This document shows, one piece after another, positions 21,904-37,946 of a stretch of DNA of 64,000 nucleotides (within the stretch, counting starts at the first letter, position 1; every line of letters starts with the position of its first letter). The notes under the pieces were generated by a model. It had not been told where the DNA came from and ran no database searches. It worked only from the letters and a program-made list of their open reading frames with translations. This DNA comes from Clostridia bacterium (GTDB lineage Bacteria; Bacillota; Clostridia; TANB77; CAG-508). The DNA is taken from contig JAFWNQ010000010.1 of assembly GCA_017510245.1 (NCBI GenBank), forward strand, positions 7,178 through 71,177. Reading direction: 5' to 3'. The position numbers and the translations under genes were made by a program.

Positions 21904-22491
21904 TTAAAGCATCTTAAGTCCTTCTTTAATGATTTCCTCAACTTCCATTTTTTCAGTATCTATTTGTTCTAATACTTTTTCAATAGCTTTAATATTATAT
22001 CCTAGAACTTGAAGTGCATCGATTGCATCTTGGGCATTTTCATTTAATTTTGCCTTGTTATCTAACTCTTCTTGTTCTGCTACAGTCTCATTTGTTTTTA
22101 TCTTATCTTTTAATTCTAAAATAATTCTTTGAGCAGTCTTAGCTCCTATTCCAGGAAGTTTCTTTAATGTTACCACATCATCTGTAATTACAGCTAACGC
22201 AAATTTAGATGGTTCGATATTTGATAATATTGCTAATGCAGATTTTGCTCCTATACCACCAACGCTTATTAATAATTCAAACATCGAAAGTTCTTCATTT
22301 GTCATAAACCCATATAGACTAACATCATCTTCCATTACTCTCATATATGTGAATACTTTTATCTCATCTTCAATTTCTTTTTTTTGAATTGCACTTTCAG
22401 TCATAAAAACTTTATATCCCACACCATTTACTTCTATAACCATAAAATTACTAGCTTTTATAGCAACTCTTCCTTTTAAGAAAGCAATCAT
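21904..22491 (-). CDS. ruvA: Holliday junction DNA helicase RuvA
   Basis: MIAFLKGRV...VNGVGYKV..., HhH motifs LISVGGIGAKSALAIL and LPGIGAKTAQRII. No ruvB follows. Confidence 0.9.
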   Translation of the reverse strand: MIAFLKGRVAIKASNFMVIEVNGVGYKVFMTESAIQKKEIEDEIKVFTYMRVMEDDVSLYGFMTNEELSMFELLISVGGIGAKSALAILSNIEPSKFALAVITDDVVTLKKLPGIGAKTAQRIILELKDKIKTNETVAEQEELDNKAKLNENAQDAIDALQVLGYNIKAIEKVLEQIDTEKMEVEEIIKEGLKML

Positions 22492-22527
22492 TCTTATTAT
22501 TCTCCTCTTTTAAAAACTTATGTTCGT

Positions 22528-22556
22528 ATTTTATAATTATTTTTTTCTTTTGTCAA
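22528..22556 (-). promoter_or_regulatory. Candidate sigma-A promoter of ruvA
   Basis: On the minus strand: TTGACA (22556-22551), 17 nt, TAAAAT (22533-22528). Confidence 0.45.
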
Positions 22557-22704
22557 TAGTCTATAGTTGCTTTTAAGGACAAGTACATTAATCACTAGTT
22601 TTTAGTGTTTAAAATACTTGTCCCTAAAAAGAATACTTATATTCTAATCATTAAGTCACAAATTTAATAAAACTATTATATTATTTCTACGTAAGCTTTT
22701 TCAA

Positions 22705-23313
22705 TTATTTAGGTTCACTACCAGTAATGCCATATAAATATTTACCAAACTCATCATATACATCGGATTCATATCCTTCTCTTATGCTTGGCCTTGAAAA
22801 GAACAAAGCTTCATCATCATTCGTTATATGTCCAAATACTGCAATAGTATTATCTTCAGTTTCTATTTCCTTGAGCCAAACACCATATATTAAATCATTA
22901 ATTGAATTAAATCCTACTACTTTGCCATATACACACACATAATCTGTACCATTATACTTTAAATAAATGTTACTATTATTTGATCCAGTATATTCAGCAA
23001 CTTTTTCATCAACTGTTTGGTTTGTTTTTGCTATTTCGTGTGATTTTCCTATAAAGTATTGTCTTAATTTTTCCAAGTCAGATAATCCTTCATTTTCTTC
23101 AATAGTTTTATCTAATAAATCTAACATATTTAAATCATTTTCCTCTGCTTCCTTATACGTTGCTGTTACGTTTTTTGTTTTCTCTATTAATCCGTTTTCT
23201 CCTAGTGCCAAGTTAATTGTTACACCTGCTAAAATAAGCAAAACAATAATCGTAACGACCAAAGCTACTAAAGTAATTCCCTCTTCTTTCACATTACTTC
23301 TTTTGTTTTTCAT
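22705..23313 (-). CDS. Pilin-like/pseudopilin-like secreted protein
   Basis: N-terminus MKNKRSNVKEEGITLVALVVTIIVLLILAGVTINLA resembles class-III (prepilin-type) leaders but lacks Glu at +5. Confidence 0.5.
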   Translation of the reverse strand: MKNKRSNVKEEGITLVALVVTIIVLLILAGVTINLALGENGLIEKTKNVTATYKEAEENDLNMLDLLDKTIEENEGLSDLEKLRQYFIGKSHEIAKTNQTVDEKVAEYTGSNNSNIYLKYNGTDYVCVYGKVVGFNSINDLIYGVWLKEIETEDNTIAVFGHITNDDEALFFSRPSIREGYESDVYDEFGKYLYGITGSEPK

Positions 23314-23552
23314 CTTTTTACTCCTTCATTCTAAGAATATAATTTGATATCAGCTAATCTTGTTACATACATAATTATAATAATAAATATACTGTTTTAC
23401 AATATGTTTAGTTTTTTTTTACATTCTACTTGATTAAAACTTCTAAGTTTTACTAACATCTAGAATTATATCTAGATTTGAATTCTTTGTTTTTTTGTAT
23501 ATTATTTCTTATTTTGGAAATAATTCTATTAAATAATTGTTTGGAGGTTTTT

Positions 23553-23762
23553 ATGGGTATTGAAAAACATACGAAAATTACAGGAAGTTCTACTGTTTCA
23601 TGGAAGGATGCTATTGTAAAAACTATTCAGGAAATATCTGAAACTACTAATTACTTAACTTCTGTAAAAATCATTGATCAAAGAGCTAAAATAACTGTTG
23701 ATAAAATTACAGAATACTTTGTTGATTTAGATGTAGCTTATATGGTAGATTCTGACCGATAA
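23553..23762 (+). CDS. Dodecin-family (flavin-binding) small protein
   Basis: MGIEKHTKITGSSTVSWKDAIVKTIQEISETTNYLTSVKIIDQRAKI... matches the dodecin pattern. ATG at 23553 behind tggagg; the track extension is spurious. Confidence 0.7.
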   Translation: MGIEKHTKITGSSTVSWKDAIVKTIQEISETTNYLTSVKIIDQRAKITVDKITEYFVDLDVAYMVDSDR

Positions 23763-23797
23763 ATAAGCTTCTTTACTATAGATTGAAAGGAGAAAAA

Positions 23798-24241
23798 ATG
23801 AGCAGTCCTACAGATACTCCACAAGAATATCAAAAATATGTTGATAAAAAATCACCTAATTCCCCTATTCTAAAAAATTGCTTTAATGCTTTTTGAGTTG
23901 GTGGTTTAATTTGTTGCATTGGTCAACTAATATTTTTTTGTTGCACGTCTAAAGGTTTAGATAATACTTCTTCAAGCACTGTAGTTTCAATTTGTTTAAT
24001 TGGTCTTTCAGCTTTTTTAACATCTATTAATGTTTTTAATAGAATTGGGAAACTTGCAGGAGCTGGTTCTCTTATCCCTATAACTGGGTTTGCAAACTCA
24101 ATTGTTGCTCCTGCCATGGAATATAAGTCTGAAGGTTATGTAATGGGGGTCGGAGCTAAAATGTTTACAGTTGCCGGTCCTGTTCTAATATATGGTATAT
24201 CAGCATCTGTCCTTGTTGGATTAATCGCATGTTTGTTTTAG
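23798..24241 (+). pseudogene. spoVAC: Stage V sporulation protein AC interrupted by an in-frame TGA at codon 33
   Basis: ATG at 23798 behind gaaaggag. The translation ...SPILKNCFNAF*VGGLICCIGQ...GAGSLIPITGFANSIVAPAMEYKSEGYVMG... is colinear with SpoVAC. TGA at 23894-23896, stop TAG at 24239-24241. The track's minus ORF 23923-24117 is an antisense shadow. Confidence 0.8.
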
Positions 24242-24324
24242 TAATAGTCATGATTGTGGAGCACTATAATGCTCCACTGCTATTTAACTCTCATCATTAC
24301 ATATTATTATTAATTGGAGGTTTT

Positions 24325-25329
24325 ATGAAAAAAATAGGAAAACATACATTACAGATGAACAATATAGTAAACATTTTAGAAACAGCATCTATAGTCGGTC
24401 CTAAAGAATCCAATGGTCCATTGGCGGAATACTTTGATAAGTGTATAGAAGATGAGTTTTGGAGTGAGAAAACATGGGAAAAAGCCGAAAGTAAATTTAT
24501 TAAAGAATCATCAAGTCTTGTACTGGCTAAATCAGGGCTTTCATTTGCTGATATGGATTATGCATTTGCAGGAGACCTATTAAATCAATGTATATCATCT
24601 ACTTTTGCCCTTAGAGAGAGTAATGTTCCTTTTTTTGGAATATTTGGAGCTTGTTCAACATTTGTTGAGGCTCTTTGTTTAGGTTCTGTTTTTATTGATA
24701 GTGGAGCCTGTACTAATGTACTTTGTTCAACTTCTAGCCATTTTTGTAGTGCAGAAAAACAATTTAGATTTCCTTTAGAATTAGGAAATCAAAGAACTCC
24801 AACAAGCCAATGGACAGTAACAGGCTCTGGATCAGTAATTTTAAGTAAAAATGGTAATTCACCACATATTACTCATCTAACACCCGGTGTAATTACAGAC
24901 TTAGGGATAAAAGATGCTAATAATATGGGCGCCGCTATGGCTCCAGCCGCTATTTCAACACTCTGCTCTCATTTTGAAGATACTGGTAGAACCCCTGAAT
25001 ATTATGATGCTATTTTTACTGGTGATTTAGGATATGTTGGGAAAGATATTTTTATAGACCTTGCAAGAACTAAAGGATATAATATTGCTTCAAAATACAA
25101 CGATTGTGGAGTTTTAATGTTTGACAAAGAAAAACAAGATACTCACTCTGGTGGTAGTGGCTGTGCTTGCATTGCTACAGTTTTTTCTGGATATTTGTAC
25201 AAAATGCTAAAAGAACAAAAAATAAAAAAATTGCTACTGATTGCAACAGGAGCATTAATGAATGCTACATCCTCTCAGCAAGGTGAATCTATTCCTGGAA
25301 TTGCTCATGCTGTCGCAGTAGAATTTTAA
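24325..25329 (+). CDS. spoVAD: Stage V sporulation protein AD
   Basis: Thiolase-like SpoVAD sequence (MKKIGKHTLQMNN...GIFGACSTF...GGSGCACIA...). ATG at 24325 behind ttggagg. Confidence 0.9.
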   Translation: MKKIGKHTLQMNNIVNILETASIVGPKESNGPLAEYFDKCIEDEFWSEKTWEKAESKFIKESSSLVLAKSGLSFADMDYAFAGDLLNQCISSTFALRESNVPFFGIFGACSTFVEALCLGSVFIDSGACTNVLCSTSSHFCSAEKQFRFPLELGNQRTPTSQWTVTGSGSVILSKNGNSPHITHLTPGVITDLGIKDANNMGAAMAPAAISTLCSHFEDTGRTPEYYDAIFTGDLGYVGKDIFIDLARTKGYNIASKYNDCGVLMFDKEKQDTHSGGSGCACIATVFSGYLYKMLKEQKIKKLLLIATGALMNATSSQQGESIPGIAHAVAVEF

Positions 25330-25343
25330 AAATGGAGGATACT

Positions 25344-25730
25344 ATGAATTACTTTCAAAATATAGATTGGATGATAATGCTTAGATGTTTTATTATAGGA
25401 GGCTTAATTTGTGTATTTGGTCAAATACTTATAGATAAAACAAAACTAACCCCTGCAAGAATATTAGTTACTTATGTTACATTAGGTGCCATCCTAGGTG
25501 GATTGGGTATTTACCAGCACTTAATAGATTTCGCAGGATGTGGAGCTACAGTTCCTCTAACAGGATTTGGGGCTAATCTAGCAAAAGGTGCAATTGAAGG
25601 AGTTCAAAATCAGGGATTATTGGGTGCATTCATAGGAGGTGTCAAAGCATCTGCAGGAGGTATCTCTGCAGCAGTATTCTTTGGATATATTGCTTCCTTA
25701 ATTGCAAAGCCCAAAATAAAAAAACAATAG
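25344..25730 (+). CDS. spoVAE: Stage V sporulation protein AE (SpoVAEb type)
   Basis: ...IIGGLICVFGQ...GATVPLTGFGANLAKGA... is a paralog pattern of SpoVAC. ATG at 25344 behind ggaggat. Confidence 0.85.
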   Translation: MNYFQNIDWMIMLRCFIIGGLICVFGQILIDKTKLTPARILVTYVTLGAILGGLGIYQHLIDFAGCGATVPLTGFGANLAKGAIEGVQNQGLLGAFIGGVKASAGGISAAVFFGYIASLIAKPKIKKQ

Positions 25731-25855
25731 AAACTTTGTACAATTTTCACTCAAAGTTCACACAATGGACAAAATTCATTATTATAATATAATCATATCA
25801 GTAATATAATTACTCCTATTACTGATTGATGTGAAAAACATCCCCTTTTATTTTC

Positions 25856-25887
25856 AAAAACGACTACCTAAGTAGTCGTTTTCTTTT
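25856..25887. terminator. Bidirectional terminator (spoVA operon / hup)
   Basis: Stem aacgactac / gtagtcgtt (loop ctaa) with A-run and T-run flanks, abutting the hup stop codon. Confidence 0.7.
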
Positions 25888-26163
25888 TTATTTATTAACT
25901 AAATCTTTTAATGCTTTTCCTGCTTTAAATACAGGTGCCTTTGATGCTGGAATAACTATTTCTTTCATTGTTTGTGGGTTTCTTCCCTTTCTTGCAGCTC
26001 TTTTTCTAACTTCGAAAGATCCAAATCCAACTAATTGAACTTTTTCACCTTTCTTTAAGCTTTCCTTTACAGAATCAACAAATGCTTCTAAAGCTACTTC
26101 TGTTTCCTTTTTTGATTTTCCTGTCTTAGCAGCCATTGCTGCAACTAATTCAGATTTGTTCAT
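25888..26163 (-). CDS. hup: DNA-binding protein HU
   Basis: [11 protein letters not shown]...[20 protein letters not shown]... Confidence 0.95.
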
Positions 26164-26220
26164 TTAATTTTACCTCCTATTATGATACAAAAATATGTAA
26201 TAGCCTAAGGCTATCTAATA

Positions 26221-27834
26221 TTATAATACTTTATTAAACAACAAAATCCTTCTTTTTTCGACTTTTTTCTTATGGATTTTAAAAATCTTAATAGGAATTA
26301 ATACTGTCAAAACTATTAAAAACACTAGTATTCCCAACCCAAATGAACCTATAAATCTTATTTTGAAGTTTTTTATACAATTTAAGTATATATAGATGAT
26401 TTTTGAAATTATAATCATCATCAAACTTGCCAAACATGGTTTAAAAAAATTTATGACTGATATTCTTATATTAGTTTCTTTTATCAAACTTATTAATGAA
26501 ATTGAACTTGTTACTATATGACATGCAAGTGTTGCTATAGCAGCACCTACTGCTCCTCCTATTGGTAAATCAATTCTATGTACTAGTGCTTTATTTAATA
26601 CTCCTTTGACTATTACTCCTACAGTAATAGCTTTTATAGGAACACTGTTTTTACCAATTCCATTTAGAATAATATTAGTTATTTGTTCCACAGTTAAAAA
26701 CAATATTTGAAAGCTACTAATTTTAAGAATACTGCCACCATCACTAGCATTTGGAAACAATATTCTTAATATTTCATTAGAAAAAACAAAGAAAATCAAA
26801 GTAGTAGGAACAGCAATAGTTAATCCCATTAAAAATGATTGATTAATTCTTTTCTCTTGAAGTTTTAATCTTCCATTTGTAGCAGCAATTGAAGGCAATA
26901 ATGAAGTTACTATTGCCATATTAAATGACAGCGGTAAATTTATTAGTGCATCTATTTTACCACTAAGAATTCCATATTGTCGTTTAGCTTCCTCATAACC
27001 TATTAAACTTTGTAAATCGTTTACAATCGTTGTAGAATCAATGTTCTTAGAAATAGTAGAAATTAAAGCAGTTAAAGATATTGGAATTGCCATTATAAAT
27101 ATTTGCTTTATTATTTTAATTATTCTAATTTCGCTTTTATAGCTACTATTTTTTATTTCTTTTTTTACAATTTTAACCTCTACTAAGTATGCTTTATATA
27201 AAAATCCAAATTCAATCACATTTCCTAAGGTTGTTGCTAAATTACTACAAGCTGCCATCAACTCAGTGTTTGTATTTTTCAATAGAAATACTGATACTTC
27301 TATCATAATAAATGTAGTAATTGTTTTCGTAAATTGATCTAATGCTTGTGCTTGTGCTGTCTTTTTAATAGCTTCTCTACCACTAAAAAATCCCTTAAAA
27401 ACTGATATAACAGAAATTAAGAAAACTGAAGGACATAATGCTATTATAGATAGTTTTGTTTCAGGCATATGTAAATAGTTATTAGCCAAAAAATTAGAAT
27501 AATAGTATAAATAATAACTTCCTATTATACCAATTAAAGAAAAAATGAATAGAGCTACTTTAAATATTTTATATGCATCTCTATATTTTCCTTTGCTTGA
27601 GTACTCTGCAATAAGTTTAGATATAGCTGTAGGAATTCCGATAGCTATTAAACTCAGAAATAAAGCAAAAACTTGAAATCCTCCATTTGCTATAGCGTTT
27701 CCTTCATCCCCATATCCTTCCCTATTTGTCAAATATAATCTATAAAACAGTCCAAGTATTTTTACAATAACTTGTGATATTAATAATGAAAAAACGCTTT
27801 GTTTGAAACTCTCTTTTTTTCTTTCTTTATTCAT
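26221..27834 (-). CDS. MOP-superfamily flippase (SpoVB/MurJ-like polysaccharide biosynthesis protein)
   Basis: About 14 TM helices. The N-terminus ...SLLISQVIVKILGLFYRLYLTN... is typical of SpoVB-like proteins. ATG at 27834 behind aggtga. Confidence 0.75.
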   Translation of the reverse strand: MNKERKKESFKQSVFSLLISQVIVKILGLFYRLYLTNREGYGDEGNAIANGGFQVFALFLSLIAIGIPTAISKLIAEYSSKGKYRDAYKIFKVALFIFSLIGIIGSYYLYYYSNFLANNYLHMPETKLSIIALCPSVFLISVISVFKGFFSGREAIKKTAQAQALDQFTKTITTFIMIEVSVFLLKNTNTELMAACSNLATTLGNVIEFGFLYKAYLVEVKIVKKEIKNSSYKSEIRIIKIIKQIFIMAIPISLTALISTISKNIDSTTIVNDLQSLIGYEEAKRQYGILSGKIDALINLPLSFNMAIVTSLLPSIAATNGRLKLQEKRINQSFLMGLTIAVPTTLIFFVFSNEILRILFPNASDGGSILKISSFQILFLTVEQITNIILNGIGKNSVPIKAITVGVIVKGVLNKALVHRIDLPIGGAVGAAIATLACHIVTSSISLISLIKETNIRISVINFFKPCLASLMMIIISKIIYIYLNCIKNFKIRFIGSFGLGILVFLIVLTVLIPIKIFKIHKKKVEKRRILLFNKVL

Positions 27835-28012
27835 ATAAATCACCTATTAATTTATATGAGAATATTTATATTATATGTATTATTTGTTTTTCACTCTATC
27901 ACTTTAGTCCGTAGAAGCAATGTCATAAAATAAAGTATTACAAATTTGCTCAAAACTCTTGTTTTTTTCGCGATTTTGTAGGATAATATAAGAGGAAAGG
28001 ATTTTATCAACC

Positions 28013-30346
28013 ATGAAGTTATTAGATAGTTTTTTAAAAATATTAAAAACTGATAGAAATACCTTTTTTACTTTTGTCTTGTCAATATGTTCAGTTTATA
28101 TAATAGTTGATAGATTAATAGAATTTTTCTTGATTGTTTTTACAGGTGTAGCCTTTGAATATTGGGGACCAATAACATATGCTATTGCCTATGCTTTCCC
28201 TGTATTTGCTTTTCTATTTTCTTTTCCATCAAAATTTGTTAAACGAGATGTAGACAAAATTACACTATTTATATCGTATTGTATAACTTTATATATATTA
28301 TTTATAATAATGATTACTGAGTGGATTAATAAACTATGCTGGATAGGCCTATTATCACTTCCTGGATATACAACAATAGTTACAGAATTTGCATTTTTGA
28401 TAAAACCAGCATTCTCTTCAATGGCTTTATTTTTGCCACTAGCCACTTGGAGTTCATTATTTAAAAAACTTTACATGAATTTTATGCAAACGAATTTACT
28501 TCAAAAATCTTTATTTGATTTTGGTGGTATAAATCTATCAGACACCAGCATTGGTTGGGGACCATATACAAACGAAGTAAAATTTGGAACAGATAAGAAA
28601 ACTGGAGCCACAGTTAAGCTTCCTGAAATTAGAAGATTTGAATCAACACTTGTCGTTGGTGTTTCTGGTGCAGGAAAAACAACATTGATTTTTGAGCCAA
28701 TGGTTGCTCAAGATATTAATAAAAAGTTTTTCTTTAGGGAAACATCCAAGACATTAGCTATAGCTGCATTAAGAACTGGAATAGCAACTTTAAATGCTCC
28801 ATATAATAATCAATATATCAATAAGAATTTTTCATTAAATATGCTTAAACCTGTTGAATCTAAAAAAGTACTATTTAACTCATATTTTAAGAAAATGATT
28901 TTAACAGACTCTGGTTCAAATATTATATACAAAAACTTAGGTATTACTTATATGTCTCCCGATTATGAGACAATAGGAAAAATAAAAGACGTTTGTGAGA
29001 ATTTTGGACTTAGCTATAATATGATTGATCCTGATAATCCAAATTCAATCGGATTAAATCCATTTTCATTTGAAGATCCGGTTCAATCTGCATTACTGAT
29101 TTCATCTGTACTAAAAGGCTTTTACTCAGATAGGAATCCTGAAGTTGAATTAGCATATAGAGAAAACTTATCAACACAAATTATAGAAAACTTAGCAATT
29201 CTTTTAAAAGTAATGTATCCTAAATTGAATAGTGGTAAAATACCAACTATTGATGATATGTTAAAATTCCTTAATAATTTTGACTTAATTGAAAAGATGT
29301 GTCAAATACTTGAGCAAGATCCTGACTTAGCATATCAATATCAAAATCAAATAGGTTATTTTAAAAAGAATTTCTATAGAAATAGTCCTAACAGAGCAGA
29401 AATGGAAAAAATAGTATCTATACCAATGTCTCAGTTAGATACTTTACTAAGATACCCTGGAGTTAAAAGAATATTATGTAATAGAACTCATAACATTAAT
29501 TACGATAATGTTTTAGAAAATGGTGAAATCAATCTTGTATGTACACGTAGAGGAGATTTGGGAGAAAACGCTCATAAAGCCTTTGGATTATTCTTCCTTC
29601 TTCTAATGCAATTCTCTGTATTAAGAAGACCTGGAAATGAAAAATCTAGAATCCCCCACTTCCTATACATCGATGAATTTCCTGATTTTATATGTCCATC
29701 TACAGAATCAATTTTTACAGTATATAGAAAATATAGAATTGCAACAGTTGTGTCTGCTCAGAATCTAGATCAAATACGTGCCAAAGGTGAAAAAATGGGA
29801 AATACAATTATTGCAAACTGTTCAAATAAATTTGTATTTGGTAATAACTCACCTCAAGACAATGACTGGTGGTCAAAAGAAATTGGGCAAAAGAAAGATT
29901 GGACAATTGATCGTAAGGGATTTGACTTTTCTAGTGAAACCTATGTAGACAAAGGTAATGTTTCTCTTGACTTTAAAGATAAGCTTACAGCTGGAAAGAT
30001 TCAAAAATTAGGATTTAAAACTTGTGCATATAAAGTTAGAGATTTAGGTGGTAGAATTTCAAATGGTGTTGCAAAACTTGATTTTATGGAAGAAAAATAC
30101 AACGAGAAACAAAAAATAAAAACATTTGACTTCAAGAGATTTTCTAATGGAATAACTCAAGAGGATACTACAGGAAAATTTAATTTACTAAAATCTATAA
30201 ACTCACATAATCCATTAGCAAATTCACATTTTTCTGATGAAGCTCAAGAAGATGGCAATCCTATAAAACTTGATACTTCAAACTTAAATTTCAATATTAA
30301 CAATGATGATGCAATAACATTTACATTTAAAAAGGATAAAAAATAA
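28013..30346 (+). CDS. TraG/TraD/VirD4-like type IV coupling-protein ATPase with polytopic N-terminal membrane domain
   Basis: About 5-6 N-terminal TM helices. Walker A VVGVSGAGKTTLIFEP, Walker B HFLYIDEFPDF, then RKYRIATVVSAQNLDQIRAKGEKMGNTIIANCSNKFVFG (TraG-D_C-like). Confidence 0.65.
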   Translation: MKLLDSFLKILKTDRNTFFTFVLSICSVYIIVDRLIEFFLIVFTGVAFEYWGPITYAIAYAFPVFAFLFSFPSKFVKRDVDKITLFISYCITLYILFIIMITEWINKLCWIGLLSLPGYTTIVTEFAFLIKPAFSSMALFLPLATWSSLFKKLYMNFMQTNLLQKSLFDFGGINLSDTSIGWGPYTNEVKFGTDKKTGATVKLPEIRRFESTLVVGVSGAGKTTLIFEPMVAQDINKKFFFRETSKTLAIAALRTGIATLNAPYNNQYINKNFSLNMLKPVESKKVLFNSYFKKMILTDSGSNIIYKNLGITYMSPDYETIGKIKDVCENFGLSYNMIDPDNPNSIGLNPFSFEDPVQSALLISSVLKGFYSDRNPEVELAYRENLSTQIIENLAILLKVMYPKLNSGKIPTIDDMLKFLNNFDLIEKMCQILEQDPDLAYQYQNQIGYFKKNFYRNSPNRAEMEKIVSIPMSQLDTLLRYPGVKRILCNRTHNINYDNVLENGEINLVCTRRGDLGENAHKAFGLFFLLLMQFSVLRRPGNEKSRIPHFLYIDEFPDFICPSTESIFTVYRKYRIATVVSAQNLDQIRAKGEKMGNTIIANCSNKFVFGNNSPQDNDWWSKEIGQKKDWTIDRKGFDFSSETYVDKGNVSLDFKDKLTAGKIQKLGFKTCAYKVRDLGGRISNGVAKLDFMEEKYNEKQKIKTFDFKRFSNGITQEDTTGKFNLLKSINSHNPLANSHFSDEAQEDGNPIKLDTSNLNFNINNDDAITFTFKKDKK

Positions 30347-30356
30347 ACTGTCAATG

Positions 30357-30416
30357 TGTCAATGGGGACGTAGTTATTATGACATTAATGTCATAATAAC
30401 TACGTCCCCATTGACA
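30357..30416. repeat. 60-bp perfect palindrome (30-bp arms, no spacer) flanked by TGTCAATG / CATTGACA repeats
   Basis: All 30 pairs were checked base by base around the centre 30386|30387. Core: tgtcaatggggacgtagttattatgacatt|aatgtcataataactacgtccccattgaca. An extra tgtcaatg lies on the left (30349-30356), and ttgaca plus ccattgaca on the right (30417-30432). Confidence 0.95.
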
Positions 30417-30434
30417 TTGACACCCATTGACAAG

Positions 30435-31364
30435 CTATAATAATATTTTTGCTTCATTTTTTCTTATTTTAAATTTTCCATCTTCATTTACAAAACTATA
30501 TAAAGAACTAGATAAACTATCATTATTCTGTTCTAAATCCGTCGTATAATAAAAGTTGATTTTGTCAAAATTTATCCTATTAATCGTTATTACCTTGAAA
30601 ACTTCTCCCATATGAGTCATATCTTCACAAACAAATACGATTTGAGGAATTGTACTAAACTCTGAATCTCCAATAATAAAATTATCATAAAAGTCCTTCC
30701 ATAGATTCATTCTATCAATTAATTGCTGTTCCCAACCCAAATTTCTTCTAATTACTTCATAGACAAAGCTATAGTTATGTTGGTTAAAATTAAAGTCTAT
30801 TCTCAAAGTTGGTTTAAATTTTTTTGCTAAACTTTTTGCAGTTATTTGAGGTTTTAGTACATAGTTACTAAACGATTTGACCTTTCTCATATATGCAATT
30901 AATAGTTGATTACCAGCTAATTTTTTCTTTATCATATCTACAGGTTTTGCATTATCTGATGGTTGCCATTTACAATCAATCTCTCTTGAGTTAAGTAAGT
31001 ATTTTCCCATTTTCTCCATGCAGTATACTCTAAAAATACCTTTTCCCTCACTAGAAACAAAATAATATCTAGTTAATATTTTGCTTTTTATTAGTTGATC
31101 TAATTTATTATTTAACTTATCTTGGCTTTTTATTTCAACATTTTCCATTTGTAACAATTGATAAATCTGCCTTGATGTTAAAAATTCATATTTATTTATA
31201 TATTCAATTATTTTAAAATGTAAATCATTTATATGTCCCAAATTAATCTTTTGCATTATTTGATTCATAGACACATATCCATCTTTACCGTCAAATACTT
31301 TTATTTCTCCCTCTCTCATTGCAAATGGAGAGACTTTTGTTTTTATTTCATTATCATTTACCAT
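30435..31364 (-). CDS. wHTH protein resembling the Replication-relaxation (PF13814-like) family
   Basis: Segment LHFKIIEYINKYEFLTSRQIYQLL...LNNKLDQLIKSKILTRYY...YCMEKMGKYLL follows the wHTH pattern of replication-relaxation proteins. Convergent with the coupling-protein gene. Confidence 0.45.
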   Translation of the reverse strand: MVNDNEIKTKVSPFAMREGEIKVFDGKDGYVSMNQIMQKINLGHINDLHFKIIEYINKYEFLTSRQIYQLLQMENVEIKSQDKLNNKLDQLIKSKILTRYYFVSSEGKGIFRVYCMEKMGKYLLNSREIDCKWQPSDNAKPVDMIKKKLAGNQLLIAYMRKVKSFSNYVLKPQITAKSLAKKFKPTLRIDFNFNQHNYSFVYEVIRRNLGWEQQLIDRMNLWKDFYDNFIIGDSEFSTIPQIVFVCEDMTHMGEVFKVITINRINFDKINFYYTTDLEQNNDSLSSSLYSFVNEDGKFKIRKNEAKILL

Positions 31365-31421
31365 TATTTTATTTGCCCCCTAAAAATTATTTTAATGCAA
31401 ATGTATTCTTATCTAATTTAA

Positions 31422-32723
31422 TTAAACTAGATAAGGTAAGAATAGATTTGCTAAACTCAAGAAAATGAAAAAACCAAGTGTATCAGTAGCTGTTGTTAAG
31501 AATATAGATGAAGACAGTGCAGGATCAATATGTAGCTTATCCAAAATCAATGGAATTACAAGTCCTGTTACTCCTGCAACCACTAAATTTCCAATCATAG
31601 CTAAAAATATAATTAATCCTAAATAAAAGTTTTTATATATCAAAAATACAACAATTCCTGTAATCAACCCTACTGCTGCACCATTAGCCACACCTAGTAA
31701 TAGTTCTTTCCAAATTAGTTTACTTGCATCTTTTAGTTTCACATTTCCCATAGCAATATTTCTTATTATAATTGAAACTGTTTGTGTACCTGCATTTCCT
31801 CCCATACCTGTTACAATAGACATAGTTGCAGATAGTGCTACCACTTGAGCTATTGTACCTTCAAATTGCTTTACAGTCATAGATGCTAAGAATGCTGTTA
31901 TTAGATTAATAAATAACCAAGGAAATCTCATTTTTAATGATTCCAATGGTGTACTATCAATCGTTTCTTCTTTATCTACACCACCCATTCTAAGTACATC
32001 TTCTGTTTGTTCTTCAATCATTACATCCATAATGTCGTCAATTGTAATAATTCCAAGCATAACCATATGCTTGTTTACAACAGGTATAACTGTTAAATCA
32101 TACTTAGTAGCAAGCAAAGCAACTTCTTCTTGGTCTGTTTCAGGTTCTGCATAGACAAAATTTTTGTTAGTAATTTCTTCTATCTTCTTTTTTCCATCAT
32201 CAATCAATATATCTCTTAAATCCACTGTTCCAACAAGTTTTTTCTTGTCATCAGTAACAAAAATAGTATCAAGTACTTCTGTCTTAGGAGATATTTCTTT
32301 AATTTTTTCTAGAGCACCATTAACATCTAGTGTATTTCTGATTGCTATGTATTCTGTTGTCATTATACCACCAGCGCAGTCTTCTTTATAGCCTAGCAAT
32401 TGCTCGATAATAGTTCTATCTCCCTTTTTCATCAAATTGATGATAGCTTTTCTTTTGCCTGTAGGCAACATTCCTAGAATATCAACAATATCATCTTTTT
32501 GCATATAGCTAAATACTTTTAAAATCTTCTCATTAGTCAAAAACTCTATTATCCTAATTTGAGATTTCTCATCAGCTTGTTCAAGAATCATTGAAAGCTT
32601 TTCATCTGTTAAAGCTGTACATAATTTAAAAATTTGTCCATCTTCATAGTCTGATAAAGACTTAGCTATGTCTATTAATATTGTTTCGTCAGTAAGTTTT
32701 TCTACATTAATAATATTTTCCAT
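31422..32723 (-). CDS. mgtE: Magnesium transporter MgtE
   Basis: MgtE N-domain, tandem CBS (...AGGIMTTEYIAI..., ...VIPVVNKHMVMLGIITIDDI...) and a 5-TM C-terminal domain. Confidence 0.9.
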   Translation of the reverse strand: MENIINVEKLTDETILIDIAKSLSDYEDGQIFKLCTALTDEKLSMILEQADEKSQIRIIEFLTNEKILKVFSYMQKDDIVDILGMLPTGKRKAIINLMKKGDRTIIEQLLGYKEDCAGGIMTTEYIAIRNTLDVNGALEKIKEISPKTEVLDTIFVTDDKKKLVGTVDLRDILIDDGKKKIEEITNKNFVYAEPETDQEEVALLATKYDLTVIPVVNKHMVMLGIITIDDIMDVMIEEQTEDVLRMGGVDKEETIDSTPLESLKMRFPWLFINLITAFLASMTVKQFEGTIAQVVALSATMSIVTGMGGNAGTQTVSIIIRNIAMGNVKLKDASKLIWKELLLGVANGAAVGLITGIVVFLIYKNFYLGLIIFLAMIGNLVVAGVTGLVIPLILDKLHIDPALSSSIFLTTATDTLGFFIFLSLANLFLPYLV

Positions 32724-32832
32724 AACTCTTATAATCCCTTCTTCTTTATTATAAAAGAATAAGTATAAAACATAAATCTAAACAATCATGTTATGAATAA
32801 AATACTAATAAATTCCTGACGTAAAATTTATT

Positions 32833-32907
32833 CTACTCAAAAACAAGTGATTGCTCACTTTTATATTTACACCTATTCAGTTTGTACTTATCGGAGCCTT
32901 CACTCAT
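32833..32907 (-). CDS. Candidate 24-aa leader ORF in the mgtE 5' UTR
   Basis: ATG at 32907 behind aagaggtgat. Product MSEGSDKYKLNRCKYKSEQSLVFE. Its last codons overlap the small hairpin aagtga-gcaa-tcactt plus U-run (32839-32860). Confidence 0.3.
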   Translation of the reverse strand: MSEGSDKYKLNRCKYKSEQSLVFE

Positions 32908-32943
32908 TAAATATCACCTCTTTTTCTTAAAACATACACAATT

Positions 32944-32972
32944 ATTATAACATAAAAAGAATAATTTAACAA
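32944..32972 (-). promoter_or_regulatory. Sigma-A promoter with extended -10 driving the mgtE leader
   Basis: On the minus strand: TTGTTA (32972-32967), 17 nt, TGtTATAAT (32952-32944). This gives a ~210-nt 5' UTR. Confidence 0.55.
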
Positions 32973-33016
32973 GATTTATGTAAAATAAAAAGTCTAATTA
33001 TTTTTAAAGTACTAAC

Positions 33017-33047
33017 AAAAAAAAAGATGCTTTCGCATCTTTTTTTT
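33017..33047 (-). terminator. Intrinsic terminator after rplL
   Basis: agatgc tttc gcatct stem extended by A/T pairs, with a T-run on the transcribed strand right after the rplL stop. Confidence 0.75.
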
Positions 33048-33048
33048 A

Positions 33049-33417
33049 TTATTGAAGTTCTACTGTTGCTCCAGCATCTTCTAATTTTTTCTTTAATTCT
33101 TCTGCTTGATCTTTAGGTAATGCTTCTTTAACTGTCTTTGGAGCACCATCAACCATGTCTTTAGCATCCTTTAATCCTAAACCTGTAGCATCTTTAACTA
33201 CTTTTATTACTTGGATTTTTTGAGCTCCAGCATCCTTTAATACAACATCAAAGTTGCTCTTTTCTTCAGCAGCTCCAGCTGCTGCTCCTCCAGCTGCTGG
33301 TGCAGCTGCTGCTACTGCAGAAACTCCATATTTTTCTTCAATATTTTTTACTAAATCAGCTAACTCTACTACTGTTAACTTGTCGATTGATTCTAATATA
33401 TCATCAATTTTTGCCAT
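33049..33417 (-). CDS. rplL: 50S ribosomal protein L7/L12
   Basis: [24 protein letters not shown]...Ala-rich hinge...[24 protein letters not shown] at 33417 behind aaggagga. Confidence 0.95.
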
Positions 33418-33513
33418 TTTAAATTCCTCCTTATATTTTTTTTGAGTTTGGCAACTCACTTCATTTTAATAAAACTTTTTATTATTAAAATATATTAATT
33501 ATTTAATTTTAAA

Positions 33514-34149
33514 TTATTTTTCTTCTTTAACTTCAACTTTTTCTTCAACTTCTGCTTCTTTAGTCTCAGTTTTTTCTTCTTTTACTTCTTCTTTAGCTTC
33601 AGCCTTTTTTTCCTTTGCATCAGATTTTTCTTCTGCTGCTGGGCTGCCACCTTCTTCTTCTTTCTTCATTCTAACTTGATCAACAGCAACTGCAAGTTTT
33701 GCAATTGTTTGTAATAATGATCCAGCAAGTTTTGAAAGAAGTTCTTCTCTTGATGGAAGTTGTGCAAGTGTTGTTAAGTCTTCAACAGACATTGCTTTAC
33801 CATCAACATATCCACCTTTGATTTTGTAATTATCGTGTTGCTTTGTAAATTTGTATATAATTTTAAGTGAGCTTAAGTAATCTTCGTCTGCAAGTACAAT
33901 AGCATTAGGTCCTACAAGTATTTCATCTAACTCTTTATTTCCATTAGAATCTAAAGCTCTTCTTAAAATATTATTTTTAACAACTTTACATTTTCCATTA
34001 GCTTCTCTTAAATCTTTTCTTAATTTTGTATCATCATCAACTGATGTTCCTCTGTAGTCAACTACTAAAATTAATTTTGCAGATTTAAGTTCTTCAGCTA
34101 ATTCCTTTACCATTGCTTCTTTCTTTTCTATTATAGCTTTATTTGCCAT
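33514..34149 (-). CDS. rplJ: 50S ribosomal protein L10 with ~50-aa Lys/Glu-rich C-terminal extension
   Basis: MANKAIIEKKEAMVKELAEELKSAKLILVVDYRG... The tail is ...KKEEEGGSPAAEEKSDAKEKKAEAKEEVKEEK... Confidence 0.95.
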   Translation of the reverse strand: MANKAIIEKKEAMVKELAEELKSAKLILVVDYRGTSVDDDTKLRKDLREANGKCKVVKNNILRRALDSNGNKELDEILVGPNAIVLADEDYLSSLKIIYKFTKQHDNYKIKGGYVDGKAMSVEDLTTLAQLPSREELLSKLAGSLLQTIAKLAVAVDQVRMKKEEEGGSPAAEEKSDAKEKKAEAKEEVKEEKTETKEAEVEEKVEVKEEK

Positions 34150-34353
34150 TTTTTCACCTCCTTTAGAATTTATATTTATAACGACTACTATTAATAAGTC
34201 TTTAGAAGTCGTGTATTAACTATGTTATGTCTAGAATCTAATCATATAAAAAACTCAATCTATAGCCATAGGCAAATAGATTGAGCAAATCTCATTCTAG
34301 TTTGCCTCGGTAGGACTTACTTATTGCCTACTATCTTTGGCTATAATAATATA
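34150..34353 (-). promoter_or_regulatory. Structured rplJ leader (candidate L10-leader autoregulatory RNA)
   Basis: 204-nt spacer between rplA and rplJ containing several hairpins (caatctat...atagattg; gtagg...cctac; acgact...agtcgt). Firmicute rplJ operons commonly carry an L10(L12)4-binding leader here. Confidence 0.4.
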
Positions 34354-35040
34354 TTATTTATGTTCAATATACAATCCTGGTCCCATTGTTGTTGCCATTG
34401 CAACACTCTTAACATATTGACCCTTAGCTGCAGCTGGTTTTGCTTTAATTATAGCATTCATAATTACTTCATAGTTCTCTAATAACTTGTCTGTTCCAAA
34501 AGAAACTTTACCAAATCCTAAGTGAATAATATTATTTTTATCTAATCTATATTCAACTTTACCAGATTTAATCTCTTCTATAGCTTTTGTAACATCCATA
34601 GTTACAGTTCCTGATTTAGGGTTTGGCATTAAACCTTTTGGTCCAAGTACCTTTCCTAATCTACCTACAACACCCATCATATCTGGTGTGGCAACAACTA
34701 CATCATATTCAAACCAGTTTTCATTTTGGATTTTAGGTATTAATTCTTCTGCTCCAACAAAATCAGCTCCTGCCTTTTCAGCTTCGTCTGCTTTTGGTCC
34801 TTTAGCAAATACCAATACTCTTTGTGTTTTTCCAGTTCCATTTGGAAGTACTACTGTACCTCTAACTTGTTGATCTGCATGCTTTGAGTCAACTCCTAAT
34901 TTAACATGAAGTTCAACTGTTTCGTCAAACTTTGTTTTAGGCATTTTTTCGATTATATCAATGGCATCTTTTGGGCTATATAATTTTTTTGCCTCAAAAA
35001 GTTTAGCACTTTCTTGATATCTCTTTCCTTTCTTTTTCAT
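34354..35040 (-). CDS. rplA: 50S ribosomal protein L1
   Basis: [10 protein letters not shown]...[12 protein letters not shown]...[15 protein letters not shown]... Confidence 0.95.
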
Positions 35041-35127
35041 TCTTACCTCCTTTGGTTTTAACGAGACTATTTTTAGTCTCTCCCATAAAATTAATTTAAA
35101 ATAACTATATTTATTTTTTTCAGCTAA

Positions 35128-35568
35128 TTATTCTTCAATTGTAACACCCATAGATCTAGCTGTTCCTGCAACCATTTTCATTGCAGTTTCTAAAGAAGCA
35201 GCATTTAAGTCTGGCATTTTAGCCTTAGCTATTTCTTCAACTTGTGCTTTTGTAAGTTTTGCAACTTTTTCCATATTTGGTTTTCCAGAACCTTTTTGGA
35301 TTTTAGCAGCTTTCTTTATTAATACTGCCATTGGTGGTTCCTTAGTAATAAATTCAAATGATTTGTCTTTATGAACTGTAATAACAACTGGTATTATCAT
35401 ACCTGCTTGTTGTGCTGTTCTATCATTGAATTGTTTTACGAAATCCATAATATTAACACCACTACCTCCTAATGCTGGTCCAACTGGTGGAGCTGGTGAA
35501 GCCTTTCCTGCTGGTATTTGTAGCTTAATAATGGTATCTTTTTCTTCTTGATCTTTTCTTCCTGCCAT
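35128..35568 (-). CDS. rplK: 50S ribosomal protein L11
   Basis: ...[33 protein letters not shown]... Confidence 0.95.
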
Positions 35569-35741
35569 TTTTACACCTCCTCTTTCTGATTATTCAATCA
35601 AAATTGCATTTTTTATTTGGTAAACTTCATTCAAAACTTCATTGTACCTAAGTACGCTTCAGTTTTTTCATTTGTTAGCCTCGTAAAATCCCATTTCTGA
35701 TTGAATTGTAAATATTGTATATATAAGAATTATACTAACTA

Positions 35742-36278
35742 TTAATTTGATTTTTCAACCTCTGCAAAGTCTAACTCAACTGGCGTTTCTCTACCAAACA
35801 TTGATACAAGAACCTTTACTTTATGCTTTTCTTTATTTATCTCTGTAACAGTTCCAATGAAATTTTCAAATGGTCCATTAATAACTTTAACTTGATCATT
35901 TACTTCATAATCAATATTAATAGATTGAACATCAAATCCCATTTTCTTTATTTCAGATTCTGTCAAAGGAATAGGGTCAGTTCCTGAACCAACAAATCCT
36001 GTAACACCTCTTGTATTTCTAACTATATACCATGTTTGTTCAGTTACAATCATTTTGATTAATACATATCCAGGAAAAACTTTTTTTAAATTAGTTTTTC
36101 TCTTTCCATCTTTAATCTCAATTTGTTCTTCCATTGGTACTATAATATCAAAGAAAAATTCTTGTAATTCTCTGTTCTTAATTGTTTTTTCAAGGTCAGT
36201 TTTTACTTTGTTTTCATAGCCAGAATACGTATGTACAACATACCATCTAGGCTCTAAATCATACTCTTTTTGAGACAT
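35742..36278 (-). CDS. nusG: Transcription termination/antitermination factor NusG
   Basis: RWYVVHTYSGYENKVK...FPGYVLIKM...KOW motif ...VKVINGPFENFIGTV... Confidence 0.95.
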   Translation of the reverse strand: MSQKEYDLEPRWYVVHTYSGYENKVKTDLEKTIKNRELQEFFFDIIVPMEEQIEIKDGKRKTNLKKVFPGYVLIKMIVTEQTWYIVRNTRGVTGFVGSGTDPIPLTESEIKKMGFDVQSINIDYEVNDQVKVINGPFENFIGTVTEINKEKHKVKVLVSMFGRETPVELDFAEVEKSN

Positions 36279-36304
36279 AACCTAGCCTCCTTAAAAATTA
36301 CTAA

Positions 36305-36853
36305 TTATTTATTGCTATCTTCTTCTGCACTTGTAGTATCTTCTGTCCATACTGCTTCAACTTCATTTACTAATGAATTTGATGTTTCAATTTCTGTTCC
36401 TTCATCTGTCTGCTCTGAGCTTTCTTCAGTATTCTGATCCTCAGTAGTATTCTCTTCTGAAGAAACTGTTATTGTATTCTTTAATTTTTTAGCACCTTCA
36501 ACTTCAGCACTATTTAAAGACTTAAAAGCTAAATCTAATACAAAAATAATTGCAGCAACTAAAATTACCATTGAAATAACTACAACAGAGTTTTCAATTA
36601 GTTCACTTCTGCTAGGCCAAATAATTTTCTTTAATTCTGCCTTAAATTCTTTAAACCATCTATTATTTTTGTCCTTTTTTGCAGCTTTTTTAGTTGGTTT
36701 CTTTTGATTTTTGGCTTTTGGCTTTGTATTAGCGCTTTTCTTAGTTGAAACTTCTTTATTTTCTTCTTTAGTTTCAACCTTAACTTCGTCTTTAACTTCT
36801 TTTATGTCTTTTTTTACACTCTTACTATTTACTTTTTTCTTGCTTTTTGGCAT
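36305..36853 (-). CDS. secE: Preprotein translocase subunit SecE with long Lys-rich N-terminal and acidic C-terminal extensions
   Basis: Core RWFKEFKAELKKIIWPSRSELIENSVVVISMVILVAAIIFVLDLAF is SecE. Its position between rpmG and nusG is canonical. 182 aa is about three times the usual Firmicute size. Confidence 0.85.
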   Translation of the reverse strand: MPKSKKKVNSKSVKKDIKEVKDEVKVETKEENKEVSTKKSANTKPKAKNQKKPTKKAAKKDKNNRWFKEFKAELKKIIWPSRSELIENSVVVISMVILVAAIIFVLDLAFKSLNSAEVEGAKKLKNTITVSSEENTTEDQNTEESSEQTDEGTEIETSNSLVNEVEAVWTEDTTSAEEDSNK

Positions 36854-36875
36854 TTTTATTCCCCCTTAAAGGCAA

Positions 36876-37040
36876 TTATTTTGTTTCTTTATGTACTGTT
36901 GTTCTTTTGCAGAATTTACAATATTTTTTTAATTCTAATCTTTCAGAATTATTTTTCTTATTTTTTTCAGTAACATAATTTCTATTATGACATTCTGTAC
37001 ATTCTAGTGTTATATGCTCTCTTGCACCTTTGCTTGCCAT
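36876..37040 (-). CDS. rpmG: 50S ribosomal protein L33
   Basis: Below the track length cut-off. Hand-translated as [54 protein letters not shown] (54 aa, CxxC...CxxC). RBS gaggaggtaag. Confidence 0.9.
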
Positions 37041-37064
37041 CTTACTTACCTCCTCAAATTATTT

Positions 37065-37946
37065 TTATTGCAATTGTTTTGCTACTTCTTCTGCAAAGTT
37101 TTCTTCTTTTTTCTCTATACCTTCGCCTCTTTCAAATCTAGCAAATCTAACTACTTCTGCATTCTTTGATTTCAATAAATCCTTAACCTTCATGCTTGAG
37201 TCTTTTACAAATTCTTGATCAACTAAGCATATTTGTCCGTAGAATTTTCCTAATCTACCCATAACTATTTTTTCAGCTATAGCTTCTGGTTTTCCTTCAT
37301 TAACAACTTGTGCTTTAAGAATTTCTTTTTCTTTTTCTAATCTATCAGCAGGTACATCTGATTCATTAACAAATTCAGGTTTTGCTGCTGCTATTTGCAT
37401 ACAGATATCTTTTCCTAATTCAGCATCATCTGCTTTCATGTCAAGTAACACACCTATCTTTCCATTTCCATGTATATAGCTTGAAAGCATTCCATCTGTT
37501 TCATATCTTTCAATTCTTCTTACACTAAGGTTTTCACCTATAGTTGCTATCTTTGATGTTAATACATCATTAACTGTTTTTCCTGATTCAGATATTGATT
37601 CTTGACTTAATAATTCATCAACATCTTTAGGATTATTCAATGCAACTTGTTTTACAACATCTGCAACGAATTTTTGGAATTCCTCATTCTTAGCAACAAA
37701 ATCAGTTTCGCTATTTACTTCAACTATTGCTCCTATTTTTCCATCTTCTGAAATATATGTTTCAACTAGACCTTCAGCAGCTATTCTGTCTGATTTCTTT
37801 TGAGCCTTAAGGATTCCTCTTTCCTTTAATAAATCTATTGCTTTTTCTTCATCTCCATCAGTCTCTGTTAATACTTTTTTGCATTCCATCATTCCAGCGC
37901 CTGTCTTTTTTCTTAATTCCATAACTTGACTTGCTGTTACTGCCAT
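37065..37946 (-). CDS. tsf: Elongation factor Ts
   Basis: MAVTASQVMELRKKTGAGMMECKKVL... is the typical EF-Ts N-terminal UBA-like domain. Confidence 0.95.
   Translation of the reverse strand: MAVTASQVMELRKKTGAGMMECKKVLTETDGDEEKAIDLLKERGILKAQKKSDRIAAEGLVETYISEDGKIGAIVEVNSETDFVAKNEEFQKFVADVVKQVALNNPKDVDELLSQESISESGKTVNDVLTSKIATIGENLSVRRIERYETDGMLSSYIHGNGKIGVLLDMKADDAELGKDICMQIAAAKPEFVNESDVPADRLEKEKEILKAQVVNEGKPEAIAEKIVMGRLGKFYGQICLVDQEFVKDSSMKVKDLLKSKNAEVVRFARFERGEGIEKKEENFAEEVAKQLQ

Follow-up and report, generated by a model that had tools for sequence, protein, structure and literature searches.

A type IV coupling protein (T4CP) encoded next to a MOBC relaxase is a known type of mobilisation module. 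On the Enterococcus faecalis plasmids pAD1 and pTEF1 it takes the form TraW-oriT2-TraX, in which a T4CP with TraG-D_C and TrwB_AAD_bind domains adjoins a Replic_Relax protein; on pTEF1, a pAD1-like plasmid typed MOBC, the neighbour of the T4CP is annotated as a 'replication-relaxation family protein'. To our knowledge, pairs of a T4CP and a MOBC-type protein are known only from plasmids, integrative mobilisable elements (IMEs) and a few phages. Here we describe a pair of this kind among the housekeeping genes of a 64,000-nucleotide stretch of DNA from a Clostridia bacterium (GTDB TANB77, CAG-508; GenBank assembly GCA_017510245.1, contig JAFWNQ010000010.1). We call the whole stretch the window, and all coordinates are window positions unless a locus identifier (L followed by a number) is given. 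The pair comprises a membrane-anchored P-loop ATPase of T4CP type, 777 amino acids (aa) long, and a convergently encoded partner of 309 aa that is of the kind of protein defining MOBC, a likeness of sequence and modelled fold rather than a proven membership. On balance, we lean towards viewing the pair as derived from the DNA-transfer (Dtr) module of a Firmicute plasmid, now fixed in the chromosome, inherited vertically and most likely serving its host.

The resemblance to the enterococcal arrangement extends to the second protein, as TraX-type proteins have about 260-300 aa and combine an N-terminal winged helix with a PD-(D/E)XK-type domain, like the window partner. There are differences as well. 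pAD1 is a conjugative plasmid with a full type IV secretion system (T4SS), whereas the window pair is chromosomal and has no T4SS; the two genes are co-directional on pTEF1 but convergent in the window; and the profiles are distant, the ATPase matching TraW weakly (hhalign E 8e-4) and the partner showing no significant match to TraX (discussed below). A coupling protein accompanied by a MOBC relaxase, without a mating pore, is also the arrangement of CloDF13 (MobB/MobC) and of streptococcal IMEs, and where a mobilisable element supplies the VirD4 coupling protein itself, a MobC relaxase comes with it (PMC5704250; PMC5357655). These are small mobile plasmids or integrase-bearing IMEs, whereas the window pair lacks mobility genes and boundaries; the likeness to CloDF13 is by description.

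MobC-like and VirD4-like neighbours outside a conjugative element, as in the window, are found in phage 0305phi8-36 (gp200/gp201) and in SPO1 (gp27.3/27.4). The former protein, gp200, has been tied to CloDF13 MobC by HHpred, and its gene and that of the adjacent VirD4-like gp201 make up a 'DNA translocation operon' (PMC3357382). The profile of the window ATPase matches gp201 (E 4.6e-6), but the phage ATPase reportedly has no transmembrane domain, unlike the window protein with its polytopic anchor. FtsK, SpoIIIE and Streptomyces TraB are membrane-anchored P-loop motors that work on chromosomal or plasmid DNA independently of a T4SS and use winged-helix recognition, and SpoIIIE has four N-terminal transmembrane segments. 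Their likeness to the window ATPase would be one of functional analogy only, and the recognition module would here be a separate protein.

The ATPase and its partner protein

The two open reading frames (ORFs), at 28013-30346 (+) and 30435-31364 (-), are bounded by a SpoVB/MurJ-type flippase gene (26221-27843, -) and by mgtE (31422-32723, -). The HU gene lies downstream of the SpoVB gene on one side, and mgtE is followed by an rplL-rplJ-rplA-rplK-nusG cluster on the other. According to precomputed Pfam annotation, the whole 64 kb carries housekeeping genes only, including SMC, MinDE, RodA, SpoVA genes, ribosomal protein operons, the dcw cluster and TopA, and none of the window genes is annotated as VirB4, integrase, transposase or recombinase. 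There are no tRNA genes within 20000-40000, that is, within 8-10 kb around the pair, and no direct repeats were found flanking it; its G+C content (0.27-0.30) equals that of the flanks. VirB4 and other T4SS genes are absent from the window and from every related locus inspected, in a search of loci, not of whole genomes.

An earlier reading of this DNA made from the letters alone, which we call the sequence-only reading, had described two convergent genes between a flippase gene and mgtE, a polytopic 777-aa protein with T4CP motifs, a 309-aa protein with a winged-helix N-terminal half of the Replication-relaxation kind, and a perfect 60-bp palindrome between their 3' ends. All four descriptions agree with our results, and so does its statement that VirB4, integrase, transposase and direct-repeat boundaries are missing. 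With G+C as in the flanks, no flanking repeats that could mark attachment sites and housekeeping genes on either side, the locus is not a recognisable remnant of a plasmid or integrative conjugative element (ICE), as had been said. Its further claim, that relaxases of the classical MOB families are missing, needs correction, because PF13814, the Replic_Relax profile, defines the MOBC class and the partner is of the Replic_Relax kind.

The ATPase passes the gathering scores of two Pfam profiles of the T4CP nucleotide-binding domain, TraG-D_C with 45.7 bits (threshold 22; E 7.7e-12) and TrwB_AAD_bind with 30.3 bits (threshold 20.5; E 2.7e-7), and some close homologues also carry T4SS-DNA_transf (PF02534). 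The FtsK_SpoIIIE profile gave no match. NCBIfam returned only partial matches, far under the equivalog cut-offs, to VirD4-like CD1115, to Bacteroides MobC (itself a T4CP) and to TraD; the NCBI names of the window ATPase and of the pTEF1 T4CP are alike, 'TraM recognition domain-containing protein'. Both Walker motifs are intact. Walker A, GVSGAGKT, occupies aa 216-223 (28658-28681, +), and Walker B, FLYIDEFPDF, at aa 550-559, leads into the TraG-D_C region at aa 551-631 (together 29660-29905, +), where two further motifs follow, SAQNLDQI (aa 581) and FGNN (aa 609). Residues G216, G221, K222, T223 and D554 are invariant in an alignment (A2) that reaches down to 32% identity, as are D554 and E555 in another (A4). 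The distance of about 330 residues between Walker A and Walker B is compatible with an inserted all-alpha domain. At the N-terminus, a Kyte-Doolittle scan places a polytopic membrane anchor at aa 17-144 (28061-28444, +), with about four hydrophobic segments compared with the two usual in TrwB or VirD4. The protein has 2633 homologues of near-constant length (about 772 aa), and the wider family is small when clustered at 50%, with 85 representatives under a limit of E <= 1e-30 and 3516 under E <= 1e-3.

Replic_Relax domains have been placed in the PD-(D/E)XK superfamily, usually fused to a helix-turn-helix, and described as predicted transcriptional regulators (PMC3424549), and PF13814 is the profile of the MobC relaxase class in CONJscan-based typing (PMC5357655). 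The MOBC relaxases pAD1 TraX and CloDF13 MobC are related to restriction endonucleases, and TraX has an N-terminal winged helix (PMC12857230). Pfam, AF2 and Foldseek together suggest the same plan for the window partner (30435-31364, -). Its AF2 model is confident (pLDDT 85, pTM 0.85) and consists of a winged helix-turn-helix (wHTH) at aa 47-116 (31017-31226, -), with elements H47-59, H64-73, H81-93, E97-103 and E110-116, and a C-terminal alpha/beta domain at aa 142-303 (30456-30941, -) that has a restriction-endonuclease-like fold according to the model, Foldseek and the alignment. Foldseek searches of the PDB with the partner returned PadR, LmrR and MarR winged helices with probability 1.0 and, at modest E-values, FokI at the top (E 6e-4), then AF2093, VC1899, Can2, Cap4 and PaqCI. 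Among viral models, full-length matches were obtained to a protein of Bacillus phage JL (E 6e-12, TM 0.62/0.69), to phage G gp146 and to A7KUX4 (E 2.2e-8, TM 0.59/0.63), a 283-aa protein that corresponds, by its length and accession series, to ORF200 of phage 0305phi8-36.

The homologues point the same way. Replic_Relax is matched by all 30 aligned homologues of the partner (E <= 0.01; best 6.6e-8), and PF13814 is precomputed for three database homologues. For comparison, TraX scores 28.5 bits and phage gp200 23.6 bits on PF13814; judged by such scores, the partner family is as near to the model as these prototypes are. Residues R206 and D276 are invariant across chromosomal and plasmid homologues, and E247 and H251 nearly so. 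A PDB sequence search with the partner gave nothing at E <= 10, PHROGs gave no match, and neither tblastn of a phage collection nor an IMG/VR scan with the partner alignment found relatives in phages.

Upstream of the ATPase gene we found a sigma-70-like promoter element, CTTGTTTTTTTcgcgATTTTGTAGGATAATATA (27958-27990, +), in which a -35 TTGTTT and a -10 GATAAT are separated by a 17-nt spacer. It stands out by its conservation. The same element of about 33 nt, CTTGTTTTTTT-N4-ATTTTGTAGGATAATATA, occurs in the related loci L004-L115; it is present in 90 of 91 of the related loci, with most positions conserved at 0.9-1.0, far above the surrounding intergenic DNA. It is retained where the ATPase is only 36-39% identical and also at loci that have the ATPase alone, and it is single-copy in the window. 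We infer that the element acts as the promoter of the ATPase gene and that its spacer is constrained. Such intergenic conservation is unusual and suggests a dedicated regulatory input. A sporulation-sigma promoter was considered at this position as well; a sigma-70-type -35/-10 fits better, by eye only.

Two features were noted upstream of the partner gene. Its leader, AAAATAATTTTT(G)TAGGAGG (31365-31400), is kept in relatives that have differing upstream genes (L001, L009-L032), and several of the relatives sharing it have a consensus TTGACA-N17-TATAAT promoter just upstream. Farther out, 57 bp upstream of the gene, an 18-nt near-perfect palindrome, CTTATCTAATTTAATTAA / TTAATTAAACTAGATAAG (31408-31435), overlaps the mgtE stop codon and might terminate or attenuate transcription between mgtE and the partner gene.

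Inheritance of the pair and its plasmid relatives

Using a 9-sequence ATPase alignment, we scanned one genome per GTDB species and found relatives of the ATPase in at least 591 species-level genomes. The best 80 matches were inspected; all belong to metagenome-assembled genomes (MAGs) of uncultured low-G+C gut Clostridia, for example Clostridium sp. CAG:793 and Candidatus Scatovivens. A few MAGs bear implausible taxon labels, which suggests binning errors. The sequence-only reading had taken the module to be isolated, and this does not hold: the same vertically inherited chromosomal arrangement recurs at these 80 loci, and all neighbours at the loci inspected are housekeeping genes. Down to an ATPase identity of 49%, the genes follow one another as HU - SpoVB - ATPase - partner, the ATPase gene being divergent from SpoVB and the partner convergent. 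On the far flank the genes differ, with mgtE and rplL in the closest relatives and pseudouridine synthases and LeuRS in others. Where at least 1.3 kb of sequence was available downstream of the ATPase gene (69 loci), a convergent partner is present in 54, mostly at 350 bp or less from the ATPase gene. The pair is linked even in a distant lineage with a second neighbourhood (pth - RNase G - rpsF - ssb - rpsR / ATPase / epimerase / partner / rplQ - rpoA), where the ATPase is 39% identical and the partner 50% identical (hhalign E 3.7e-80).

The pairwise distances of these genes correlate: over 38 loci the Mantel r is 0.66 for ATPase versus partner, 0.74 for ATPase versus SpoVB and 0.84 for partner versus SpoVB (each p = 0.002), and the correlations with SpoVB and HU span 0.41-0.84 (p = 0.002). 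Between close species pairs, the ATPase has dN/dS values of 0.04-0.12 and the partner values of 0.03-0.08, comparable to or below those of SpoVB. These data show that the pair has been co-inherited vertically over the long term and under strong purifying selection. Across hundreds of species at the least, in a gut clade that is uncultured and has reduced genomes, it behaves as a housekeeping locus that keeps its position, promoter, length and sequence, and its synteny, Mantel correlations and G+C content depart from the patchy distribution and host-incongruent phylogeny expected of an IME or ICE.

Mobile relatives of the pair were found on large plasmids. Full-length relatives of the ATPase, including the membrane region, were identified by tblastn on Clostridium beijerinckii p1 and C. 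botulinum pFWSKR40E1-type plasmids (about 28% identity) and on a Brevibacillus megaplasmid (25%). The plasmid T4CPs are 25-29% identical over 73-90% of the length and are longer than the window protein, at 923-1001 aa versus 777 aa. Partner homologues of 24-28% identity occur on those megaplasmids, on Thermoanaerobacterium pMU3262 and on Paenibacillus plasmids. By sequence similarity, the C. botulinum, C. beijerinckii, Thermoanaerobacterium and Brevibacillus megaplasmids are the nearest mobile relatives of the pair (records NZ_KT897278.1, loci L088/L089; NZ_CP107023.1, L087; NC_017998.1, L093; CP139434.1, L094). On the plasmids the two genes lie 7-10 kb apart, amid transfer, replication and recombination genes. 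C. botulinum pFWSKR40E1 carries a VirB4-like ATPase, and pMU3262 and the Brevibacillus plasmid have pilus/secretion-type ATPases or a mating-pair-formation (MPF) type assigned by MOB-suite. MOB-suite types these megaplasmids as 'non-mobilizable', meaning that no known relaxase is detected.

A third gene is shared by the plasmids and many chromosomes. Directly upstream of the partner gene, four plasmid types have an S1-domain gene for a multi-S1 protein of about 250-290 aa (L087 19411-20283, L088 13554-14429, L093 11113-11979, L094 12075-12827); the combination of S1 with the wHTH/PD-(D/E)XK protein is thus found in 4 of 4 plasmid types and the T4CP relative in 3 of 4. As on the megaplasmids, with which R206 and D276 are also shared, an S1-like ORF precedes the partner gene in 41 chromosomal loci (e.g. 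L086 11501-11794, -), in a small single-domain form of about 80-97 aa. The window has mgtE in this place, upstream of the partner, and no S1 gene. The S1 protein may be a third component of the module. The S1-partner-ATPase signature common to plasmids and chromosomes supports a plasmid module of this kind as the ancestor of the chromosomal pair, and the plasmid S1 and wHTH/PD-(D/E)XK genes may represent a relaxase lineage overlooked by current MOB typing.

A number of observations weigh against the reading of the pair as the descendant of a Dtr module with a host function. The window partner itself scores 22.0 bits on Replic_Relax, under the 25.3 cut-off, and is matched at aa 55-154 only, its C-terminal domain remaining unmatched. 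Profile comparison of the partner with TraX is not significant (hhalign E 0.59) and with gp200 marginal (hhalign E 0.025). MOBC relaxases have a DEE metal-binding motif (PMC6736028). TraX is described as having an essential tyrosine too. No canonical D...(D/E)xK or DEE motif could be placed in the partner, nor could its conserved residues be mapped to the published DEE. Because the catalytic motif was not located and the position expected to hold the beta-2 aspartate varies in the alignment, the partner may bind DNA yet be nuclease-dead. For the ATPase, an AF2 model built from a 24-homologue alignment has low confidence (pLDDT 42; long helices at aa 15-44, 53-70, 79-114 and 119-159), so the T4CP fold and the all-alpha domain stay putative, and the sole sequence tie of this protein to a solved T4CP is a weak match of Walker A to DotL (E 0.0096, PDB search). 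All relatives are MAGs, viewed at the level of loci, and the DNA substrate, nicking, ATPase activity, interaction of the pair and cellular role are each reached by inference.

The partner-less loci belong on the same side. In 15 of the 69 genome loci, and likewise in 15 metagenome loci, there is an ATPase without a partner within 8-10 kb; the metagenome loci came from a scan with a 38%-identical representative (P0245), which yielded the window's own family and not the P0245 lineage. At ATPase-only loci an intact ATPase lies among rpe-rsgA-prkC, uvrC-glmS or arsP-truA-cdaA, and dN/dS is 0.043 for one ATPase-only pair. The ATPase can evidently be maintained alone, then, unless the partner lies elsewhere in the genome. 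A 314-aa ORF downstream of the ATPase in L100 was considered as a diverged partner and rejected, being an ArsP-type permease.

These loci, at which selection on the ATPase continues and the promoter is kept, are what would be expected if the ATPase were a stand-alone membrane NTPase and the 309-aa protein a regulator or nuclease-dead DNA binder, their adjacency being merely historical. The description of Replic_Relax as a predicted transcriptional regulator (PMC3424549) and the lack of an identified catalytic motif in the partner are consistent with such independence. Yet the two genes are convergent and adjacent in 54 of 69 loci and are found together again in the other neighbourhood, at 39% and 50% identity; homologues of both occur on at least three unrelated megaplasmid types, and the same combination of proteins recurs in pAD1-type plasmids and Bacillus phages. 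We regard functional independence as unlikely, if still deserving of some weight.

The intergenic palindrome

The gap between the two stop codons is filled by a hairpin (30349-30432, no strand assigned) identified by folding. At its centre stands the perfect 60-bp palindrome (30357-30416), with five TGTCAAT/ATTGACA units on its flanks, and the whole forms a hairpin of about 84 nt (-55.7 kcal/mol, z = -13.9). A transcript from the strand of the wHTH gene would end in a U-run after the hairpin. The palindrome is single-copy in the window and, among the loci fetched, is found elsewhere only at loci of the same species. Even there it varies: a 99%-identical strain keeps the 60-bp core, with differing flanks in which TGTCAATGG units have been gained or lost. 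In relatives the gap is occupied by ordinary bidirectional terminators (A-run, stem, T-run) unrelated in sequence to the palindrome; one relative, 80% identical, carries a plain terminator of 36 nt, and in two related loci the gap is merely 7 nt. In the same gap, a palindrome of unrelated sequence with arms of 33 nt occurs in one other species, and in another there is an inserted stretch of about 230 bp with inverted repeats at its ends. The gap between the convergent genes seems prone to acquiring palindromic DNA. The window palindrome is most likely an overgrown, fast-evolving bidirectional terminator or a small palindromic insertion, species-specific and outside the conserved machinery.

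Two other identities were considered for this DNA and rejected. A dispersed repeat, similar to repetitive extragenic palindromes (REP) or miniature inverted-repeat transposable elements (MITE), does not fit the window, which holds no further copies and has GGGGACG solely inside the palindrome. A known RNA, for the palindrome or the leader, was dismissed on an Rfam search that gave only spurious, sub-threshold matches to hairpin models. We also recorded the positions of palindromic DNA, insertions and strain variants at the gap in other loci (L005 12340-12406; L033 between 10305 and 10617; L117 2431-2533), and insertions of 0.6-2.9 kb that part the ATPase from its partner in eight species (L034, L038, L054, L061, L062, L065, L078, L082).

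The pAD1 oriT was reportedly described by Francia and Clewell in 2002 as a large inverted repeat plus short direct repeats. The layout of the window palindrome recalls such an origin, since a pAD1-type oriT sits between the T4CP and relaxase genes, where the window has a large inverted repeat and five short units. The repeats bound by TraX are five in number, direct, and 70-120 bp away from the nic site (PMC12857230). The pair might nick a chromosomal oriT composed of the palindrome and the TGTCAAT units and feed the mating pore of a co-resident element, mobilising the chromosome in an Hfr-like manner, and the pair is indeed of the type found on self-sufficient mobilisable plasmids and IMEs. 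However, the palindrome is missing from all other species, some of which have a gap of 7 nt or a plain 36-nt terminator in its place, and its flanking units vary even among 99%-identical strains. No T4SS gene was seen at any inspected locus, about a quarter of loci have an ATPase without an adjacent partner, and housekeeping-level purifying selection over hundreds of species would be hard to explain by donor-side transfer alone. Compared with pAD1, there is no conserved oriT-like repeat here. The lack of conservation in relatives argues against the palindrome as an ancestral oriT, so the sequence-only proposal of it as a candidate oriT is unsupported; of the expected co-occurrence of pair and palindrome in related genomes, the synteny of the pair was found and the palindrome was absent from other species. 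Chromosome mobilisation in this form seems to us a minor possibility.

Possible function of the pair

In the defence-system database PADLOC, the ATPase matches mad8 of the MADS system (E 1.3e-11), and the structural neighbours of the partner include Can2, Cap4 and Card1-like effector nucleases. Both observations would fit a defence pair in which a membrane ATPase and a DNA-binding nuclease sense or degrade incoming phage or plasmid DNA. MADS, however, is an eight-gene operon, mad1-mad8, that includes a methyltransferase (bioRxiv 10.1101/2023.03.30.534895), and no component other than the mad8-like ATPase is present at the locus, where the neighbours are SpoVB, HU and MgtE; the partner has no significant match in PADLOC. 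Moreover, a defence system typically has a patchy distribution and a place in a variable island, whereas this pair is syntenic, diverges with the core genes and is nearly universal in the clade inspected. We consider a defence role improbable. A decaying remnant of an integrated IME or ICE, to which the conjugative origin of the gene families and the plasmid location of the nearest mobile relatives might point, is already contradicted and has hardly any probability left, because synteny, linkage, co-divergence and dN/dS refute it: both ORFs are intact and constant in length with a conserved P-loop, dN/dS is 0.03-0.12 over many species pairs, integrase, att repeat, tRNA target and G+C deviation are all lacking, and even species in which the two proteins are diverged to 50% keep the locus where it is.

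Three functions had been offered by the sequence-only reading. Conserved synteny, co-divergence with the host and strong purifying selection disfavour two of these, a minimal mobilisable unit and a defence-type pair; the third, a domesticated DNA-translocation system, fits best. The module is of a known kind, and what is unusual is its state: chromosomal, vertically inherited, constrained and stripped of mobility functions across a large uncultured clade. For the pair as a chromosomally fixed descendant of a plasmid Dtr module, the absence of T4SS genes, integrase and boundaries, the housekeeping-level purifying selection and the conserved vegetative-type promoter favour a host function over the spread of an element. 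Such a function might be DNA export, import or segregation. A more specific version is that a domesticated conjugation-derived ATPase and a MOBC-like relaxase form a T4SS-independent, promoter-driven DNA-handling system in the core genome of a large Clostridia clade, the plasmid S1 and wHTH relatives being an unrecognised relaxase lineage; this we put forward tentatively, as a possibility short of a probable one.

Mechanistically, the 309-aa protein would recognise a specific DNA site through its winged helix and perhaps nick it with the PD-(D/E)XK-like domain. It might then pass the DNA to the ATPase, possibly by way of the conserved C-terminal tail of the latter, by analogy with TraD and TraM, and the ATPase, as a membrane-embedded oligomer, would use ATP to move DNA at or across the membrane. 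If the pair does act on DNA, it would be a clear case of domesticated conjugative DNA processing and would offer a handle on DNA exchange and handling in uncultured Clostridia. On the plasmid side, a missed relaxase family would alter mobility predictions for megaplasmids of C. botulinum, C. beijerinckii and Bacillales.

Elsewhere in the window, a gene for a PemK/MazF-type toxin (115 aa, PF02452) was found at about 11100-11447, among housekeeping genes and beside the gene for an HD-domain protein.

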